A stretch of DNA of 64,000 nucleotides, taken from contig NZ_JAQYWQ010000014.1 in NCBI RefSeq assembly GCF_029379315.1, positions 542 to 64,541 of the forward strand, given 5' to 3'. The translations under genes were made by a program, and so were the position numbers. The notes under the pieces are model-generated. The model was not told the DNA's origin, ran no database searches, and saw only the letters and a list, made by a program, of their open reading frames with translations. Below are positions 55,026 through 64,000 of this stretch, piece after piece. Numbering within the stretch: position 1 is the stretch's first letter; each line of letters begins with the position of its first letter. The DNA is from Nostoc sp. S13 (GTDB lineage: Bacteria; Cyanobacteriota; Cyanobacteriia; Cyanobacteriales; Nostocaceae).

Positions 55026-55241
55026 ATGGTTCAACGTGGTTCTAAAGTACGTATTCTCCGTCCTGAGTCCTACTGGTTTCAGGATCTTGGAACTGTGGCT
55101 TCTATTGATCAAAGCGGCATCAAATACCCAGTAATTGTCCGCTTTGAAAAGGTAAATTACTCTGGTATCAATACCAACAACTTTGCCCAGGATGAATTAG
55201 TAGAGGTTGAAGCACCAAAGGCTAAAGCACCTAAAAAATAA
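55026..55241 (+). CDS. psaE: Photosystem I subunit IV
   Basis: [19 protein letters not shown]...[16 protein letters not shown]. Confidence 0.97.
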
Positions 55242-55486
55242 GCAGCAAAGCTACAAGGGGGTTGTTTGATGCGATGATGAAGGGAAGTCTTAAGTATGAA
55301 GTCTGAAAACTTTCAGTTTATTCATCCTTCATCCTAGCCTACCCTAATCGACGAGAAGCCGTCCTGTGGGTATTTACGGTTTCTTTCTGGTAGTACGGCA
55401 ACCACGTACATGTGTATAACATACTACCTTATCTCTTCTTTATTGACTCCCCAAGTACATCAAAATTGCTTGCTTAATCAATTTGA

Positions 55487-56365
55487 ATGCCTGAACTGCC
55501 TGAAGTTGAAACAGTCCGAAGGGGTCTAAATCAATTGACCCTCAACCAAGAAATTACGGGTGGAGATGTGTTGCTCGATCGCAGCATCGCCTACCCGTTT
55601 TCTGTCGGTGAGTTTGTTGATGGGATTAAAAAGAATGCGATCGCTACTTGGTATCGTCGCGGTAAATATCTCCTCGCTACACTCTCCCCCCCTTCTCCCT
55701 CATCCTCCTCATCAACTGGCTGGCTAGGGGTTCATCTGCGAATGACTGGTCAACTACTATGGCTGCATCGAGATGAACCATTACATAAGCACACACGGGT
55801 CAGATTATTTTTTGGGGATCAGCAGGAATTACGCTTTGTTGATCAGCGTACCTTCGGTAAAATCTGGTGGGTTCCGTCTGGTGTTGCTGTAGAAAGTATT
55901 ATGACTGGTTTGGCAAAACTGGCAGCAGACCCATTTTCCCCCGAATTCACTGTCGAATATCTAGCTCTTAAACTCCAAAACCGTCGCCGTCCGATTAAAA
56001 CTGCGCTACTGGATCAATCTGTGGTAGCGGGATTAGGTAACATTTATGCTGATGAAGCATTGTTTAAGAGTGGAATTTTACCTGAAACTTTGTGTATAGA
56101 TTTGCAGCTAAAGCAAATTGAGCGTTTACGAACAGCCATAATCCAAGTGTTAGAAACCAGCATTGAGGCTGGTGGTACGACTTTTAGTAATTTCCTAAAT
56201 GTTAAAGGTACTAATGGCAACTATGGTGGTGTTGCCTGGGTTTATAACCGCGCTGGAGAACCCTGTCGAGTTTGTGGCACAGCAATTGAACGGATTAGGT
56301 TAGCTGGGCGATCTAGTCATTTTTGCTCGCAGTGTCAAACGCTAGGGGGAGTTAGAAGTTTGTAG
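55487..56365 (+). CDS. mutM: Formamidopyrimidine-DNA glycosylase
   Basis: MPELPEVE, HLRMTG, GLGNIYADE and C-terminal zinc finger. Confidence 0.96.
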   Translation: MPELPEVETVRRGLNQLTLNQEITGGDVLLDRSIAYPFSVGEFVDGIKKNAIATWYRRGKYLLATLSPPSPSSSSSTGWLGVHLRMTGQLLWLHRDEPLHKHTRVRLFFGDQQELRFVDQRTFGKIWWVPSGVAVESIMTGLAKLAADPFSPEFTVEYLALKLQNRRRPIKTALLDQSVVAGLGNIYADEALFKSGILPETLCIDLQLKQIERLRTAIIQVLETSIEAGGTTFSNFLNVKGTNGNYGGVAWVYNRAGEPCRVCGTAIERIRLAGRSSHFCSQCQTLGGVRSL

Positions 56366-56442
56366 TTTGGAGTTTTTACTTCTAACTCGGAACTCTCTTA
56401 AAATGCAGATAGAAAGAAGTTACAAATTTGAGAGAGGAATTG

Positions 56443-56658
56443 ATGGCAGTCAAAAAAGGAGATATGGTTCGCGCTGTCCGCGAGAAACTGGAAAACAGTC
56501 TGGAGGCCAAAGCCAGTGATACTCGCTTTCCTTCTTATTTGTTTGAAACCAAGGGCGAAATTGTCGATATCAAGGGTGATTACGCCCTGATTAAGTTTGG
56601 GAAAGTACCAACACCTAATATTTGGTTACGTGTGGATCAAGTCGAAGAGTTTAATTGA
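56443..56658 (+). CDS. ndhO: NAD(P)H-quinone oxidoreductase subunit O
   Basis: [26 protein letters not shown]...VPTPNIWLR. Confidence 0.92.
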
Positions 56659-56815
56659 CACTCCCCGTTCGCTTTGTGACGGAGATTCTAATTTCATTTT
56701 AGCTACTTGCTCTACCAGGCTTTCACCAAGTAGCGTAGAGGTTGCTAGTCCATTAGCGTTACTTGGTCAGTGAGGCGTAAATGCCTCACTTAGCCTTCAA
56801 CCCAAGCACCTGAAG
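56655..56815 (-). mobile_element. Probable IS200/IS605-family right-end relic (no transposase or TnpB ORF)
   Basis: Minus strand ends GAATCTCCGTCAC...GGGGAGTGTCAA (subterminal hairpin then TCAA); a second hairpin AGTGAGGC-GTAAAT-GCCTCACT lies at 56769-56790. Confidence 0.55.
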
Positions 56816-57042
56816 TCGGAAAAACGCAACTGCGTTGCTTTAACCCCCTAATTCCCTTGCCGACGCGGGAAGGGGGAAAATTAAAAATCTCTCTCCTTGT
56901 AGGAGAGAGATTTTGTTTGTTTGTAAAGTTTAAGTTGATGGGTAAGCAAATTTGTAGTAACGACTTTAGTCCTTAAAAGTTAAGGACTAAAGTGTTTATT
57001 ACAAACCCTTCATTACTACCTTGACAAAGTATTAGTTTCGCG

Positions 57043-57375
57043 TTACCGGCGGGAATCCTGATCTGCGGGGTCGCCGTAGGGGTCTTCGCTGGCTGGACGC
57101 ACGTCACCAAACTCCCCTTTGTCTGCGGGGTCGCCGTAAGGGTCTTCACTAGCTGGGCGAACATTGCCGTAAGACGCGATATCTCCGGGGTCGCCATAGG
57201 GGTCTTGACTGGCTGGGGTAACGTTCCCGTAAGATGCCGGGTCTGCGGGATCACCGTAGGGGTCTTCGCTGGCTGGACGTACATTGCGATCGCGCAATTC
57301 GGCATCTTTGTCAGCTTGATCGCTGTCCGATCCCAAAAGGAAATCTTTCGCCTTTCGCAAAAAGTCATCTACCAT
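57043..57375 (-). CDS. Small acidic repeat protein with four VxPASxDPYGDP repeats
   Basis: Repeats visible in both protein and DNA (gggtcgccgtaggggtc). Confidence 0.75.
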   Translation of the reverse strand: MVDDFLRKAKDFLLGSDSDQADKDAELRDRNVRPASEDPYGDPADPASYGNVTPASQDPYGDPGDIASYGNVRPASEDPYGDPADKGEFGDVRPASEDPYGDPADQDSRR

Positions 57376-57470
57376 AATCTGTCTCCTGATTTAAGTTCGT
57401 GTTTCCGACGTGCGCGATCGGCGTTATCCTCCGGGAAACCCGCTTTAGATTTACACACGCTTCACTGAAT

Positions 57471-57968
57471 CTAGAGTGCCGGAGCTGCGGATGAAGTTAT
57501 GCCAGTTAGATCGCGACCTGTAGTACTCCCGTTATAGCCTTGGAACTGACTATACTGCCGTGCCTCAGATTCTGGTACTCGAATTCCTTCTGATGGTGGA
57601 GTTACCCAGTGAGCGCGCTTTTCAGCATCACGGTAGTATACACGCCCGTTTTTAGAAAGATAGTACTTACCTTGCGCTCCTTCTTTTGAAGCATTCTTAT
57701 GCTGGTTGTAGACGTAATAAAGTGCCGCAGCTCCCGCCAAAAGTGCCACTTTTTGCCCTGTACCCAATCCCTTTTTAGCTTCGGGTTGGTTTGTAGCGTT
57801 GCGCTCGCTCACTGTTCTACCAACACTATCATCAACAGGTGGTGGTACTGAAGCGTTTCGGGCACCGCCTCCGCAGCTACTTAACAAGGGTACCATTAGC
57901 AATGCGGAAAGTAGCACTGCAAATAGACGCGAAACTATTTTACGTTCTTTATATATTGTTGTGTTCAT
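57471..57968 (-). CDS. Putative lipoprotein
   Basis: Lipobox-like LLSSC; YYLSKNGRVYYRD motif. Confidence 0.7.
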   Translation of the reverse strand: MNTTIYKERKIVSRLFAVLLSALLMVPLLSSCGGGARNASVPPPVDDSVGRTVSERNATNQPEAKKGLGTGQKVALLAGAAALYYVYNQHKNASKEGAQGKYYLSKNGRVYYRDAEKRAHWVTPPSEGIRVPESEARQYSQFQGYNGSTTGRDLTGITSSAAPAL

Positions 57969-58307
57969 GGGATTTCATCATCACCTGTATTTGCTAAAAG
58001 CCTTGCTGTTGCAAAAACAAAGTTGGAATTCCTGTTATTTCACCTGGAATTGAAAAAACATATACCAACTCAATTTATAACTGCACCAGCTACAGCGTTT
58101 GAATATCATGATGATCGATTTTCGCAAGTATTCCATCCCGCCTTTGAGAGAACTGCATTCATCCGCAGGAAATATTTTGTGAATTTTTAATGAATCAATT
58201 TCGCTAAAACGCCGAAATATTCAGCAATTTCTCGGTTATTTTTTCGGGGTAAATAAATTAAAAAGATACAGTCGTTACAATAATTTTTTTCAGAAAGTAC
58301 ACTCAAT

Positions 58308-58961
58308 ATGACATCACAAAATACAGCCCAAACTAGAACTCGTCTCCTTTTGGCTTTGTGGGATTTGGGAGGAACGCAGCAGGAAGTTAAGAAAGGTCAA
58401 TTCACTAAGCGAATTGTATCCAAAAGCCAGAAGGTAGCAGATTATCAGGGCATATTCGAGGAATTACAGAGTCAGGGTGCGATCGCAATTTCCACAAAGG
58501 GATATTCTCTGACATCTGGCAAGGGTTTAGAGGTATTGAGTGAGGGTTTGAGAACTGGCGATTTTAAGTTTGAAGGGACGATTGTCGGTACTTGGGCGGC
58601 GAATGCTTTGGTGAGATGGATTAGTCAAATTGATGTGGCTTTAACTGGTTCAGACGTACTAGTTAATGGGAAAAGTGCGATCGTATCTTACGACAAGTTT
58701 AAGTCAGTGGCCTTGGAAGTTTACGACAAGTTGAACCAAAACTACAACTTAGATAATCTGGTGCCAATTTATCGCATCAGGAGAGAAATAGGGGAGAGAG
58801 TTAACCGTACAAAGTTTAATGAATGGCTAATAGAAATGCAAGCTGATGACATTTTGCAGCTGATGACTGGACAAGTACCAGACTTTACCCCTGATAAACG
58901 TGAAGATTCAATATCTATACCTGGTGCAGAACTACGTTCTTACGCGAAACGCTTGATTTAA
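58308..58961 (+). CDS. Hypothetical protein, probably two winged-helix-like domains; first gene of a putative defence operon
   Basis: LLLALWDLGG...; C-terminal NLVPIYRIRREIGERVNRTKFNEWLIEMQ. Confidence 0.75.
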   Translation: MTSQNTAQTRTRLLLALWDLGGTQQEVKKGQFTKRIVSKSQKVADYQGIFEELQSQGAIAISTKGYSLTSGKGLEVLSEGLRTGDFKFEGTIVGTWAANALVRWISQIDVALTGSDVLVNGKSAIVSYDKFKSVALEVYDKLNQNYNLDNLVPIYRIRREIGERVNRTKFNEWLIEMQADDILQLMTGQVPDFTPDKREDSISIPGAELRSYAKRLI

Positions 58962-59009
58962 TCAAATTGCCCGCACACTTTGTAGTTTCTCGCACCATAT
59001 CAAATCACT

Positions 59010-61125
59010 ATGACAAATACCTTTGTTTCTTCCATAGAAGCTGTCAATGCCGCCATTCAAAATCATAATCCGTTTACCAATGATGGCATTGTTAAAGAAC
59101 AGGATGTCTGGGGAAAAGGATTCCCTGATGTAGCAACTCTAAATGCCCATGCTTCTAATAAAGTTTTTGAGGCAATTGAATTTGTGCGAACAAGCCAATC
59201 TAGTCAAGACAAAGTGACTTCAATTGCCATAACTGCACAAAAGGGGGTTGGGAAAACCCACATTCTTAGTCGCATTCGTCATCAGCTTGAAAAAGAAGGT
59301 GGTGCTTTATTCGTCTATGCAGGCGGTAATAATTATACAGACTTAAATTTAGTTAAGTACCAATTCCAGCAAACCTTGGCAAATAGTCTGAGTAAAACTG
59401 GTAGCCAAAAAGTAATGCAATGGCAGGAAATAGCTACCGCTATGGCAAACGAAGGTAGAAGTGATAATTCTCCCACTCCAGAAGAGTTAGTCAAAAAATT
59501 TGACCAAGTTTATGCAAATAGTTTGGCTCAAAATAAAAACTTAATGAATGCTCTGCAAAAACAAGTTATCAAAAATAAACCCAATGCAGATCCCTATATT
59601 CTACGGGCTATTTTGTGGACGCTTTCAGAAACTCAAGCAACTTTTGCAATTCAATAGACTTATCCGGAAATGAGAACTTTATTTGGCTGAAACCTAGCTC
59701 TGGAGAGGGTTTTAGAGGTTCCTGTTTTATATAAGCTAAAAAGCCAGCTATGTAAGGGTTTCAGCTATTTTGAGGTTTATTTGTGGATAAGTCTAATGGT
59801 TATCTGGTAAAGAGTTAGCGAAATCTAATGCTGATGAGTTGGGATTGCCTAATCCTAATAAAACTAATCAAGATAGAGAAGCTGAAGCTCTCAGAAATAT
59901 TCAGCAAATTTTGAATTTAGTTAGTTTCTATAACCCTGTCGTCATTTGTTTTGACGAAATAGATGTTATTAACAACTCTACTGATGATGGCTTCCCAACA
60001 GCAAGCATAATCGCTAATTTTGTCAAAATTCTCCATGATACTCTCGAAAACTCTGAACTTAGTCAAGGTGTTGTTATTCTCACAGTAATGTTGTCCGAAA
60101 CATGGAGAGATAACGTAAACTCCATGCCAGGTGGTACACCTGACAGAATTTCAAAATATACACAAAGAAAACCACTGGAATTAAAAAACGTTAGTGGCGA
60201 TTCTATAGTTGAATTAGTTACTGCTTGGCTGCAAGAGTATTACAGTTCAAAAAATTTAATTCCTCCTCATCTAGTCTACCCATTTGAAGAAAGTAAGCTG
60301 AAGGAATATGGCAAAGTAAGTAAACCAAGTGTAAGGGAAGCTTTGCGATGGTGTGCAGACAACTTTAAGATTTATGAAGAACCACTTCCATCTGATCCAT
60401 TTGAGAGGTTTGAATTGGCATTCAAAAAGGAATCCGAGGCAGATATTGGAGATTATATAGAGGATAGTTCCTTAATTGCTGAAGCTCTCTACTTTGGCTT
60501 TGATACTTTGAAAGGTCAGACTTTAGAAGGAGTTTTGATTGAAGAAATTGTAAGCGATATCCAAAATAAATCACAGAATAAGCCTAGATCACAGGATAAA
60601 ATTTTTATAAACTTCAAAATTATTGGTAGTGAAAATGCGAAACCAGTAAAAATAGGGGTTTCTGTAATACAGTACTCTCAATTTACATTAACAGCTGCTT
60701 TAAAACGCTTAATCGACTATGAAACATTTGAACTTACTCGTGGTTGTTTGCTTCGTTCGCAATCCAAGATAGAACAAATGAAGAAAAACTCAGAAGCATA
60801 TAAATTGCTTAACGAACTTATATCAGAAAAAGGTGGTGAACATATCGATTTAATAGAAGAGCAAATTTGTCCAATTGTAGCACTTTTAGCTGTTTATAAA
60901 AAGCAGCTACATTATCAATTAACAGAAGATTATATTTTTGATGTAATTATTAAGAATAAAATTACGCTTGATAATGTTTTGCTTAGAGAAATTTTAAGTA
61001 ATCCATCTGGTAATATACCTACCGTTGATGATGAAGAAGATATCCAACTAATAGAGATTTTACTCAATTCTTCAAATATCAATGAAACAGATGACTTAGA
61101 TGAATTGAACGAGTTATTTAGTTAA
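59010..61125 (+). pseudogene. P-loop ATPase (657 aa when restored) interrupted by a 139-bp MITE
   Basis: Walker A AQKGVGKT in fragment 1 and Walker B VICFDEID in fragment 2. Deleting 59656-59797 gives in-frame ...FAIQ-WLSGKELAK... Confidence 0.9.
59656..59794 (+). mobile_element. 139-bp MITE copy A, TIR AGACTTATCC/GGATAAGTCT, AAT target duplication
   Basis: AAT at 59653-59655 and 59795-59797. Confidence 0.93.
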
Positions 61126-61127
61126 AC

Positions 61128-62805
61128 ATGAGTGAATCAATTTTAATTTATAACGCTCTGTGTCTACCAGCTCCCGATATTGAAGCTTTAATACAAGGGC
61201 GAATGATTGCGGCTATGCCTCGTAAATTGCTTAATAATGGGCAAAAATTTGCTTTTTACCCCCTTGATTATTTAACAAATCAGCTTTCAATTGAGCAATA
61301 CTACCACCCAAATTTTTTAGCTACTGCTCAAAGTGCCTTGACACAGTTAAATAGTCAAGATATTTTGTTACAACCTAAGCAAATAAGTTTACTTCAAAAT
61401 GAAGAACAGTTACAACTACCCCTCTTATCTCATAAGACAGTTTCAATTAAAGCTTGGGCTAGATGTGAACATTGCCAAATACTAGATAAGACTAAACCTT
61501 TAGATATTTTGTCTAAGTTAACAATATGGACACCAGAAGCATTTGAGGCAATATTACAGAAACAACCGCATATTTTTTTGGCTTACTTGCGTGTTTATAA
61601 TGTGCCTGAGTTCTGTGAAGTTGCAGCTCATCCAAACATTGAAGAAAAACTAGGTAAATTTGTGGGTTTAGCTAATATTGGTGTTTCTGAAGCTAATCCA
61701 GTATTAAACGATCGCACCTTCGCCCAACGCAAACGCCAATTAGAAAAGCTAGAACCCTCGCTGCATCCTGAATTGGAAAAATTGCAGAGTGCGATCGCAT
61801 CCCTAAGAATTAGCCAACCAGCAGCGAAACAATTAGACGACGATATTAAAGCATTTTTGGGTTGGAGTAGCAATCAACCAACAAATCCATTAGATTTAGA
61901 CTTACCTTGGATTCAGAAAATTGCTGAAGTTGGGAACTCTAGCGACGGACATACATTTGAAAAATTAGTTCGTAGAGGATTACTAAAATTAGGCTTTACA
62001 GGTTCAGGTTTGAATCCAGATGCAACTGGTGGCGCAGGAGGCATGGATTTTTACGCTGAACAACCTTATCCAATAGTAGGAGAGTGCAAAGCAACTAAAA
62101 CTGAAAAAGTTACTGATGGCACACCTGCACAGTTACTAAAAATAGGTATGAACCATCTTCGTAAAGTTCAGTATGAAAATTCAATTAAATTAATTGTAGC
62201 GGCTGGAGAACTAAATTTTTACGCCCTGAGAACAGCAACCGAAAATCAAATAGACTTATCCACAAATAAACCTTAAAATAGCTGAAACCCTTACATAGCT
62301 GGCTTTTTAGCTTATATAAAACAGGAACCTCTAAAACCCTCTCCAGAGCTAGGTTTCAGCCAAATAAAGTTCTCATTTCCGGATAAGTCTAATGAATGTT
62401 ATTAGCCCTGAAACACTACAAAAACTAGTTGAACTGCAAGCACACTACAAAAACTCTATCAATTTGATAGAACTAAAAGAGTATTTGCAACAAGCTCCTT
62501 TTGGTTTAGCTGAAGATAAAATTAATACTTATATCGATAAAGTTGAGCAATCTATAAAGTTGCGATCGCAGATTATCCAGCTTGTGAAAAATTATCTACA
62601 AAACTCAGGCGCAGAATCTGCTGGTGTTGATGCTCTACATGGTGCTTATTTCGGCTCACATCCACCACAGCCATTAAAAACAGTAGAAATGCACGAAATT
62701 CTGATTGAACTTTCTTCACCCTTAACAGGCTATTTAGGACGAATTAAAAGTAGTAATTGGAATAGAGATCGCTTTTACTTTCTCCGCGATTTACCCATTA
62801 ACTAA
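61128..62805 (+). pseudogene. DUF1802-like domain plus Mrr-type PD-(D/E)XK nuclease (511 aa when restored), interrupted by the MITE
   Basis: ALIQGRMIAAMP and IKAWARCE (DUF1802-like); FEKLVRRGLLKLGF...GGMDF...GECK (nuclease). Deleting 62252-62393 gives ...TENQ-MNVISPE... Confidence 0.88.
62252..62390 (-). mobile_element. 139-bp MITE copy B, inverted relative to copy A
   Basis: Reverse complement of copy A with one mismatch; AAT at 62249-62251 and 62391-62393. Confidence 0.93.
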
Positions 62806-62888
62806 AGATAATACAATATATTTGTTTTTTTACGGATATTTTCAAAATAACTGAAGTGCTTAGGCGTAGCCAGCTGTAGGCATCGCAG

Positions 62889-63251
62889 TTATCCCAAAGT
62901 TAATATATCAGCATGATAATTAACTACCAACGGCAGGATTTTTAGCCATTCTGAACCTAACAAAACTTCTGTAATTTCATCCCCTGCATAAACAGAAATC
63001 TCATACTCCTGTCCATCCAATAGAATCTTACCTAAATACCTATCAAATATGATTTCTCCTTGTGCAGTTCGCAGAAGTTCATCCCCACTATAGGCCCAGT
63101 CAAGACTATCTAAATCTTGTTTATTAATTGCTATAAAGCCTGTGAACCCAGTATCTAACATAGCATCTACAGGCAGATTTAATCCATCAAATGTAATCAA
63201 ATCAATTTCAAAAAATAGTTCTCCTTTACTACCAAAAGTACCCTGAATCAT
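62889..63251 (-). CDS. Single-domain clan AA (retropepsin-like) aspartyl protease family protein
   Basis: AMLDTGFTG catalytic-type motif and C-terminal VLLGSEWL. Confidence 0.8.
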   Translation of the reverse strand: MIQGTFGSKGELFFEIDLITFDGLNLPVDAMLDTGFTGFIAINKQDLDSLDWAYSGDELLRTAQGEIIFDRYLGKILLDGQEYEISVYAGDEITEVLLGSEWLKILPLVVNYHADILTLG

Positions 63252-63565
63252 ATTGTGCCAGTGGCTCCACTTTCATTCAGGCAAAAAACGCAGTGTTTAA
63301 CATTTGGGTACTTCTGAAGCGCTTTTCTATGAGCCACTTCTATATCTTCATCAATAAAAAAATTTCCGCTATCTGGTTCAATGGCAATATACCAGCCATA
63401 GTTTTTTTCGATATATTCTGGACGCACACACTCAAAAATTGCACGACAACGCCGATAAAATATCTCCCGTTCAGCTTTGCGTCTAGCAAGTTCTTCTGGT
63501 GGTAAAGTGCGTTCTGGAAAGATTCTGCCTCGACGTGCAGGTTGTTTTGCAGTTGATTCAGTCAT
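63248..63565 (-). CDS. Small hypothetical protein (DUF5678-like), coupled to the aspartyl protease gene
   Basis: YGWYIAIEPDSGNFFIDED motif; ATGA overlap with the downstream gene; start placed at MTEST. Confidence 0.65.
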   Translation of the reverse strand: MTESTAKQPARRGRIFPERTLPPEELARRKAEREIFYRRCRAIFECVRPEYIEKNYGWYIAIEPDSGNFFIDEDIEVAHRKALQKYPNVKHCVFCLNESGATGTI

Positions 63566-63769
63566 AGTAATTAACCCCATTTGTTAACGCTGTCTTAACT
63601 TTATTTTACAGAAAGATAAAAGCGATCGCTTTTACTTTCTCCGCGATTTACCTATTAACTAAAGATAATACAATATATCTCTTTTCTTACCTTCGCGCTC
63701 TTTGCGTCTTTTGCGGTTCGTTTCAAAATAACTGAAGTGCGTAGGCGTAGCCAGCCGTAGCCATTGCAG

Positions 63770-64000
63770 TTATCCTAAAGTCAAAATATTAGCCTGATAA
63801 TTAACTACCAACGGCAGAATTTTTAGCCATTCTGAACCTAACAAAACTTCTATAATTTCGTTGCCTGCAAAAACTGGAATTTCATACTCCTGTCCATTCA
63901 ATTTTACCTTCCCTAAAAACAAATCAAAAACTTTTTCACCCTGTGCTGTTCGTAGTTCTTGACCACGAATAAATTGCCAGTCCAGACCATCTAAATCTTG
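63770..64000 (-). CDS. Second aspartyl-protease-like paralog, 5' part beyond window
   Basis: Translates QDLDGLDWQFIRGQELRTAQGEKVFDLFLGKVKLNGQEYEIPVFAGNEIIEVLLGSEWLKILPLVVNYQANILTLG*. Confidence 0.85.
   Translation of the reverse strand, partial: QDLDGLDWQFIRGQELRTAQGEKVFDLFLGKVKLNGQEYEIPVFAGNEIIEVLLGSEWLKILPLVVNYQANILTLG

Follow-up and report, generated by a model that had tools for sequence, protein, structure and literature searches.

Several systems of MITEs (miniature inverted-repeat transposable elements) have been described in the Nostocales. The genome of Anabaena sp. 90 contains 147 MITEs, 15 of which lie inside open reading frames (ORFs) (PMC3542288), and mcy clusters inactivated by MITEs have been reported in Baltic Anabaena (PMC10969869). 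For the Nezha MITE and ISNpu3, of Anabaena variabilis and Nostoc PCC 7120, recent mobility was shown by a comparison of filled and empty orthologous sites (Zhou et al. 2008; PMC3184786). Here, we describe a 64,000-nucleotide stretch of DNA from Nostoc sp. S13 (hereafter the window), in which two nearly identical copies of a 139-bp MITE, in inverted orientation, interrupt two adjacent genes, A and B, of a conserved three-gene cassette.

Like the Anabaena MITEs, the S13 element is small, bounded by terminal inverted repeats (TIRs), able to form a hairpin, present in many copies in a member of the Nostocales, and inactivates genes. In S13, a single family makes up ~120 near-identical copies, of which 34% are intragenic according to a crude gene map, compared to ~10% in Anabaena 90. 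Furthermore, the Anabaena 90 MITEs have no insertion sequence (IS) with matching TIRs (type II), whereas for the S13 MITE there is an IS partner whose 10-bp termini and target-site duplication (TSD) are identical to its own. In this respect, it resembles Nezha/ISNpu3, a Nostocales MITE of 130-170 bp accompanied by an IS with matching TIR and direct repeats, although the two could be compared by description only; a literature search on ISNpu3 returned nothing useful. The S13 family is possibly undescribed. As a mechanism, it is of little import, since insertional inactivation by MITEs is well documented in the Nostocales and the S13 case is a further example. The element stands out only by its high copy number, the near-identity of the copies, the high proportion of them that is intragenic, a clear target motif and a clear IS partner.

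Structure of the Interrupted Locus

The cassette and the two insertions are composed of the following features:

58308-58961, plus strand: cassette gene 1, 217 aa, intact, no family match.
59010-59657, plus strand: 5′ fragment of gene A, 215 aa, P-loop ATPase with the Walker A motif GVGKT; a TAG stop codon arises at the TSD/MITE junction.
59653-59655 (left) and 59795-59797 (right), strand not applicable: AAT target-site duplication of MITE copy 1; the reconstructed empty site, TTCAAT/GG, fits the YAWTR consensus.
59656-59794, plus strand: MITE copy 1, 139 bp, the master sequence common to 87 genomic copies.
59798-61125, plus strand: 3′ remainder of gene A; taking out the MITE and one AAT joins it in frame to the 5′ fragment (657 aa in all).
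61128-62276, plus strand: 5′ fragment of gene B, 382 aa, with DUF1802 and a D...ExK motif; the stop codon lies 8 codons into the MITE.
62249-62251 (left) and 62391-62393 (right): AAT target-site duplication of MITE copy 2; the relatives have a single AAT.
62252-62390, minus strand: MITE copy 2, 139 bp, in the opposite orientation to copy 1, with a private G117A substitution.
62394-62805, plus strand: 3′ remainder of gene B, which excision brings back into frame for a protein of 511 aa.

A preliminary description of the window had reported two 139-bp copies in inverted orientation that differ by 1 nt and have 10-bp TIRs and AAT duplications, all of which was borne out by the window sequence. 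The single difference between the copies (1 of 139 nt) is a G/A substitution at element position 117, and the repeat in itself far exceeds chance expectation. The termini, AGACTTATCC and GGATAAGTCT, match at 10 of 10 TIR positions, and at 14 of 16 when the comparison is extended. Both target sites in the window (CAATG and AAATG) fit a C/T-AWT-G/A target. The element has no coding capacity, is well below the ~500-bp limit for MITEs, and brings in a stop codon 0-8 codons after entry in both host frames. As single-stranded DNA, it is predicted to fold into a long, imperfect hairpin (-24 kcal/mol, z = -5.3). By all sequence criteria, the 139-bp element is a MITE.

Copy 1 splits gene A into pieces of 215 aa and ~440 aa, while copy 2 splits gene B into pieces of 382 aa and 137 aa. 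Removal of each element together with one AAT restored frames of 657 aa and 511 aa, as had been claimed, and the repaired frames contained no further lesions. The stop codon of gene A ends at position 61125 and gene B starts at 61128, leaving only 2 nt between them. An insertion in gene A therefore probably already lowers the expression of gene B.

The corresponding uninterrupted locus is found in three Nostoc relatives (G016, G005 and G012), which carry a syntenic, intact cassette with proteins of 217-222, 623-631 and 457-526 aa. At site 2, the sequence in these three relatives runs from ACCGAAAATCAAAT directly into GAATGTTATT, and a single AAT takes the place of the AAT-MITE-AAT of the window. 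For site 1, the gene A protein after repair could be aligned without gaps over the junction (FAIQ/WLSGKEL in S13, with the junction at the slash, versus FAISWLAGKSL), and the repaired A and B proteins align end to end with their intact orthologues across both junctions. These empty sites, together with the TSDs and the copy number of the element, support the proposal that it is a MITE that has recently hit and inactivated two adjacent, co-oriented genes. Each copy has its own TSD, and the two insertions are independent as well as recent.

Both insertions are also present in other sequence data. In the independent NCBI assembly GCA_036917035.1, window positions 55128-62368 are matched at 100% identity. 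The match takes in the whole of copy 1 and 117 nt of copy 2, including the private G117A substitution, and a second contig of the same assembly begins at window position 62302 and is again 100% identical from there on. A Logan contig (run SRR28386204) spans 59771-62286, beginning within copy 1 and ending within copy 2, again at 100% identity.

The MITE Family in Nostoc sp. S13

The genome-wide copy search that the preliminary description had called for was made with blastn in the S13 genome (7.23 Mb in 238 contigs, 42% GC). It yielded 114 full-length copies: 87 have exactly the sequence of copy 1, and the others are 99% identical. There were also 16 partial copies, each of them located at a contig end. 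Only four positions vary over all copies: A135G (22 copies), C89T (13 copies), T98C (4 copies) and G117A (1 copy, which is copy 2 of the window). This suggests that the burst that produced the family was very recent. A perfect 3-bp TSD flanks 110 of the 114 full-length copies, in 102 cases with the sequence AAT or ATT, and the target reconstructed from these sites is the palindrome-like C/T-AWT-G/A.

The C89T copies are nested within the A135G group, and the A135G substitution alters one TIR to AGACCTATCC. Two of the four T98C copies are found 17.5 kb apart on contig C177. The existence of three subfamilies (A135G, the nested C89T, and T98C) suggests successive waves of amplification from variant masters. 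The densest cluster of copies is also found on C177, at positions 106265-134233, with 5 copies in 28 kb (scan P = 0.06 for the densest 30-kb window).

When the copies were placed on a crude gene map drawn up for the genome without its MITEs, 39 of the 114 (34%) proved to be intragenic, compared to 67% of all AWT sites. Many insertions in genes have been lost to selection, but by no means all. The genes hit include those for RtcB, a SAICAR-synthetase paralogue, a class-V aminotransferase, TauD, a short-chain dehydrogenase/reductase (SDR), an HlyD-type protein, a caspase-like protein and a Tn3 transposase. From reading the sequences by eye, STAND/TPR proteins, a TonB-dependent receptor and an ABC exporter are hit as well. 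The insertions in the seven genes from RtcB to the caspase-like protein are located at the following contig positions:

C186:17843, C49:5755, C92:3330, C116:23371, C144:55083, C167:43101 and C156:22499.

Purine auxotrophy resulting from the broken SAICAR-synthetase paralogue was considered and rejected, as an intact, canonical purC is present on C153. On C110, a transposase-like gene with no Pfam match is hit twice (1558-1696 and 2384-2522), by inverted copies 688 bp apart.

In a search of 24 other Nostoc genomes, N. flagelliforme was the only one with the MITE, in 3 copies with 90-91% identity. It is thus present in 2 of the 25 Nostoc genomes searched, and there is a distant match on one Calothrix plasmid. 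A very recent, lineage-specific burst that has broken ~39 genes is a possible marker for strain typing, and could be used as a natural mutagenesis data set for dispensable Nostoc genes.

A Candidate Mobilizing Insertion Sequence

IS5/PIF-Harbinger elements give rise to MITEs, such as the Tourist-like elements of plants, which are amplified, short, non-autonomous derivatives. The preliminary description had predicted an IS with AGACTTATCC ends, and such an element does exist. In the S13 genome, this terminus is also found on a second repeat, of which there are 12 left ends (AGACTTATCCTTAATATAAATAGC...) and 12 right ends, all of them at contig ends. The IS is thus present in ~12 copies in S13, known here only as contig-end stubs. 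The 12 left ends are adjoined by AAT, ATT or AAA.

An intact IS of 1151 bp with these ends, at 95% identity, is found in Nostoc sp. ATCC 53789 and N. flagelliforme CCNUN1. An example of the intact element is:

Plasmid NZ_CP046709, 50192-51342: intact IS of Nostoc sp. ATCC 53789.

The intact IS has the termini AGACTTATCC and AGACTCATCC and is flanked on both sides by an AAT duplication (genomes G055 and G020). In the ATCC 53789 copy, the ORF encodes a protein of 302 aa that matches DDE_Tnp_4 (PF13359; 4.6e-31) and HTH_Tnp_4 (7e-13). These two domains, the short TIRs, the 3-bp TSD and the A/T-rich, palindromic target are all shared with the IS5/PIF-Harbinger elements. The transposase differs from them in scoring below the NCBIfam IS5 cut-offs (72 bits against the equivalog model NF033581, with a cut-off of 140), and the IS is therefore placed at the level of the IS5/PIF-Harbinger superfamily only. 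A further difference from that system is found in the interior of the S13 MITE, discussed below.

In N. flagelliforme, the MITE and the IS co-occur. Judging from this co-occurrence, the identical termini and the identical duplication, the IS very probably moves the MITE in trans.

The Disrupted Cassette

The cassette is found at the same locus in all 24 of the other Nostoc genomes searched, and also in many other Nostocales. Hundreds of full-length homologues are present in public protein sets, the best with 86-87% identity to the repaired gene A protein (657 aa) and 91% to that of gene B (511 aa). The fixed syntenic position in every Nostoc genome searched is unlike that of typical mobile defence islands.

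The gene A product is a P-loop NTPase with weak matches to AAA_16, KAP and NCBIfam Sll1717, all of which are below or near the cut-off. The gene B product matches DUF1802 (1.6e-33) and contains an invariant block, GGMD...GECKATK, in which D307...E319-x-K321 fits the D..ExK nuclease motif at the level of the motif only. For the structure of the gene B product, we turned to the AlphaFold model (m7df449175ed1) of a homologue, P0121, that is 91% identical to the S13 protein. The model is of moderate quality, with a mean pLDDT of 67. Its DUF1802 domain (residues ~1-190) gave ASCH/PUA-like matches with a probability of 0.97-0.98 (E = 0.008-0.05), the closest of which were the ASCH domains of TRIP4 and of Zymomonas. 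This predicted ASCH/PUA-like fold may be the first structural hint for the Pfam DUF1802 family. In the fold search with the same model, matches to PD-(D/E)xK enzymes were insignificant (E > 0.8). Nuclease activity of the gene B product is thus suggested by the motif and is unproven.

The presence of a P-loop NTPase next to a protein with a putative ASCH/PUA-like reader and a D..ExK motif is reminiscent of McrBC-like, type IV restriction systems, and a restriction-like role for the cassette is plausible. The S13 cassette differs from such systems in that PADLOC models gave 0 matches to the three proteins, sequence and profile searches against the PDB gave no match, and the PD-(D/E)xK fold matches were insignificant, as noted above. 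A literature search on DUF1802 returned nothing useful. The double hit draws attention to a conserved, uncharacterised cassette that encodes an unknown protein, a P-loop ATPase, and a DUF1802 protein in which an ASCH-like domain is combined with a D..ExK motif. Nostoc sp. S13 appears to live without a functional version of it.

The DNA flanking the cassette is 86-89% identical to that in the three relatives with the syntenic intact cassette. Gene A is only 43-46% identical to its syntenic orthologues in these relatives, yet 86-87% identical to those of other Nostoc strains. As the identity of gene A is far below that of the flanks, the locus must carry deeply divergent alleles (59010-61125 and 61128-61440). 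In gene B, residues ~48-103 are missing from many orthologues.

Origin of the Double Insertion

We consider it likely that the double hit is a case of ordinary insertional inactivation, in which independent MITE hits during a recent burst, with mobilization in trans by the probable IS partner, struck a dispensable cassette, and neither the proximity of the copies nor their inverted orientation calls for a special mechanism. According to this proposal, the non-autonomous 139-bp MITE would have inserted twice independently, duplicating A-W-T within its Y-AWT-R target each time. The ~1.15-kb IS of the IS5/Harbinger superfamily, which encodes a DDE_Tnp_4 transposase and has the same termini and AAT duplication, would have moved the MITE in trans, and the family would have been amplified very recently in the Nostoc lineage of S13 to ~120 near-identical copies, about a third of them in genes. 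Two of these copies would then have knocked out the ATPase and DUF1802 genes of the conserved Nostocales cassette. An insertion can persist only in a dispensable gene, and after a first hit the remainder of an operon is neutral. Once the first gene had been broken, its tightly coupled neighbor would have presented a neutral target, and both hits would persist because the cassette is dispensable. We infer this dispensability from the survival of the insertions themselves; the order of the two hits is likewise inferred.

The preliminary description had allowed that the density of the MITE might be high enough for two close hits to be expected by chance, and this turned out to be the case. In random placements of 114 copies at AAT/ATT sites of the S13 contigs, 4.4 adjacent pairs no more than 2.6 kb apart were expected on average, compared to 6 observed (P = 0.29), and at least one such pair was present in 99% of the placements.

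Several observations weigh against the interpretation as ordinary inactivation. The interior of the IS, and hence an intact transposase gene, is not found in this assembly, in which the smallest contig is 2.5 kb, presumably because contigs <2.5 kb were dropped. The MITE and the IS share only the terminal 10 bp, and their interiors are unrelated. The presence of gene B in 24 of 24 other Nostoc genomes searched suggests that it is ordinarily useful, contrary to what would be expected of a dispensable gene. Finally, when the 39 intragenic hits were spread uniformly over the intragenic AWT sites, the probability that at least one adjacent, co-oriented gene pair would have both members hit was P = 0.10. 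For at least one gene being hit twice it was P = 0.20, and for both events jointly (the operon and the C110 gene) it was P = 0.04, a mild excess of clustering. This gene-level null disregards both dispensability and the neutrality of an operon after the first hit, and the true expectation is therefore higher. Chance combined with relaxed selection is sufficient to explain the double hit.

The next possibility is local hopping, as proposed in the preliminary description, whereby the first copy gave rise to the second, or a nearby donor to both, through a transposase that prefers near targets. The joint probability for the two double-hit events under the uniform intragenic null would be consistent with such a preference, as would the two T98C copies 17.5 kb apart on C177 and the cluster of 5 copies in 28 kb on the same contig. 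However, no genome-wide clustering of the MITE was found at 3, 10 or 30 kb, within the limits that an assembly in 238 contigs sets to this test. All pairs within these distances numbered 4, 16 and 37, compared to 5.1, 14.9 and 33.5 under the null (P = 0.74, 0.40 and 0.30, respectively), and the pairs within 2.6 kb were not significantly in excess either. Moreover, both window copies stem from the master sequence shared by 87 copies, with no specific link between the two. We consider local hopping unlikely; the counts do not support it.

A different explanation for the second hit would be selection. If loss of either the ATPase or its nuclease-like partner made the other harmful, or if loss of the whole system was advantageous, silencing of both genes would have been favored. 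In NTPase-controlled restriction nucleases, orphan components can be toxic, and the architecture of the cassette recalls these systems by analogy, with a P-loop NTPase encoded by gene A and an ASCH/PUA-like N-terminal domain and an invariant D307...E319-x-K321 in the gene B product. That both hits are recent and the frames free of other lesions would also be in keeping with selection. On the other hand, chance and relaxed selection after the first hit suffice, and the hit in gene A, with its stop codon at 61125 and the gene B start at 61128, is likely to be polar on gene B anyway. The lack of a PADLOC, PDB-sequence or significant nuclease fold match, with nuclease activity unproven, also weighs against this reading. 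Selected silencing, which had been put forward as an alternative to hopping, is thus neither supported nor needed, and we regard it as improbable. Slightly less probable still is a more specific form of it, in which selection fixed the second insertion because, in an undescribed ASCH-reader/PD-ExK and P-loop NTPase system, the orphan partner is harmful alone. If true, the double hit would be a natural genetic footprint of coupling between toxin and regulator in a new, chromosomally fixed, restriction-like system of the Nostocales.

It had also been suggested that the inverted pair might flip the 2.46-kb segment between the copies, or mobilize it as a composite, and so act as a reversible off-switch. 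Inverted repeats of 139 bp that are 99% identical and 2.46 kb apart are indeed a possible substrate for homologous recombination. Inversion of 59795-62251, however, would keep the 5′ part of gene A and the 3′ part of gene B apart from their partners, so that both genes are split in either orientation and there is no ON state. Only the native orientation is found in the assembly of the window, in GCA_036917035.1 and in the SRR28386204 Logan contig. A composite transposon was rejected, as there is a separate AAT duplication for each MITE, the relatives have colinear flanks, and the inner 2451 bp are single-copy in the genome. A return of function would take two independent, precise excisions, and nothing observed suggests this. 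An invertible or composite element is highly improbable.

Least probable of all is an artefact in which the assembler misplaced one or both MITE copies, as might be feared in a 238-contig draft whose contigs are broken by repeats: both copies have perfect TSDs, the flanks agree base for base with the orthologous empty site, and mis-assembly, by which the preliminary description would have been refuted, is very unlikely because the independent assembly and the Logan contig reproduce the junctions at 100% identity, G117A included.

Other Repeats in the Window

Two further sets of repeats were observed near the cassette. At window positions 62761-64000, a unit of ~857-881 bp that contains two small minus-strand ORFs is tandemly duplicated. 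The direct repeats are 92% identical between 62761-62833 and 63618-63690, and 82% identical between 62828-63119 and 63709-64000. Of the two ORFs, one encodes a protein of 120 aa that weakly matches aspartyl proteases and the other a protein of ~105-110 aa. The relatives align only once to 62761-64000, while two ORF pairs are also present in the other assembly. Upstream of the cassette, at 57062-57301, four tandem 60-bp repeats that are 67-75% identical lie within a minus-strand ORF, and these are also found in the relatives.

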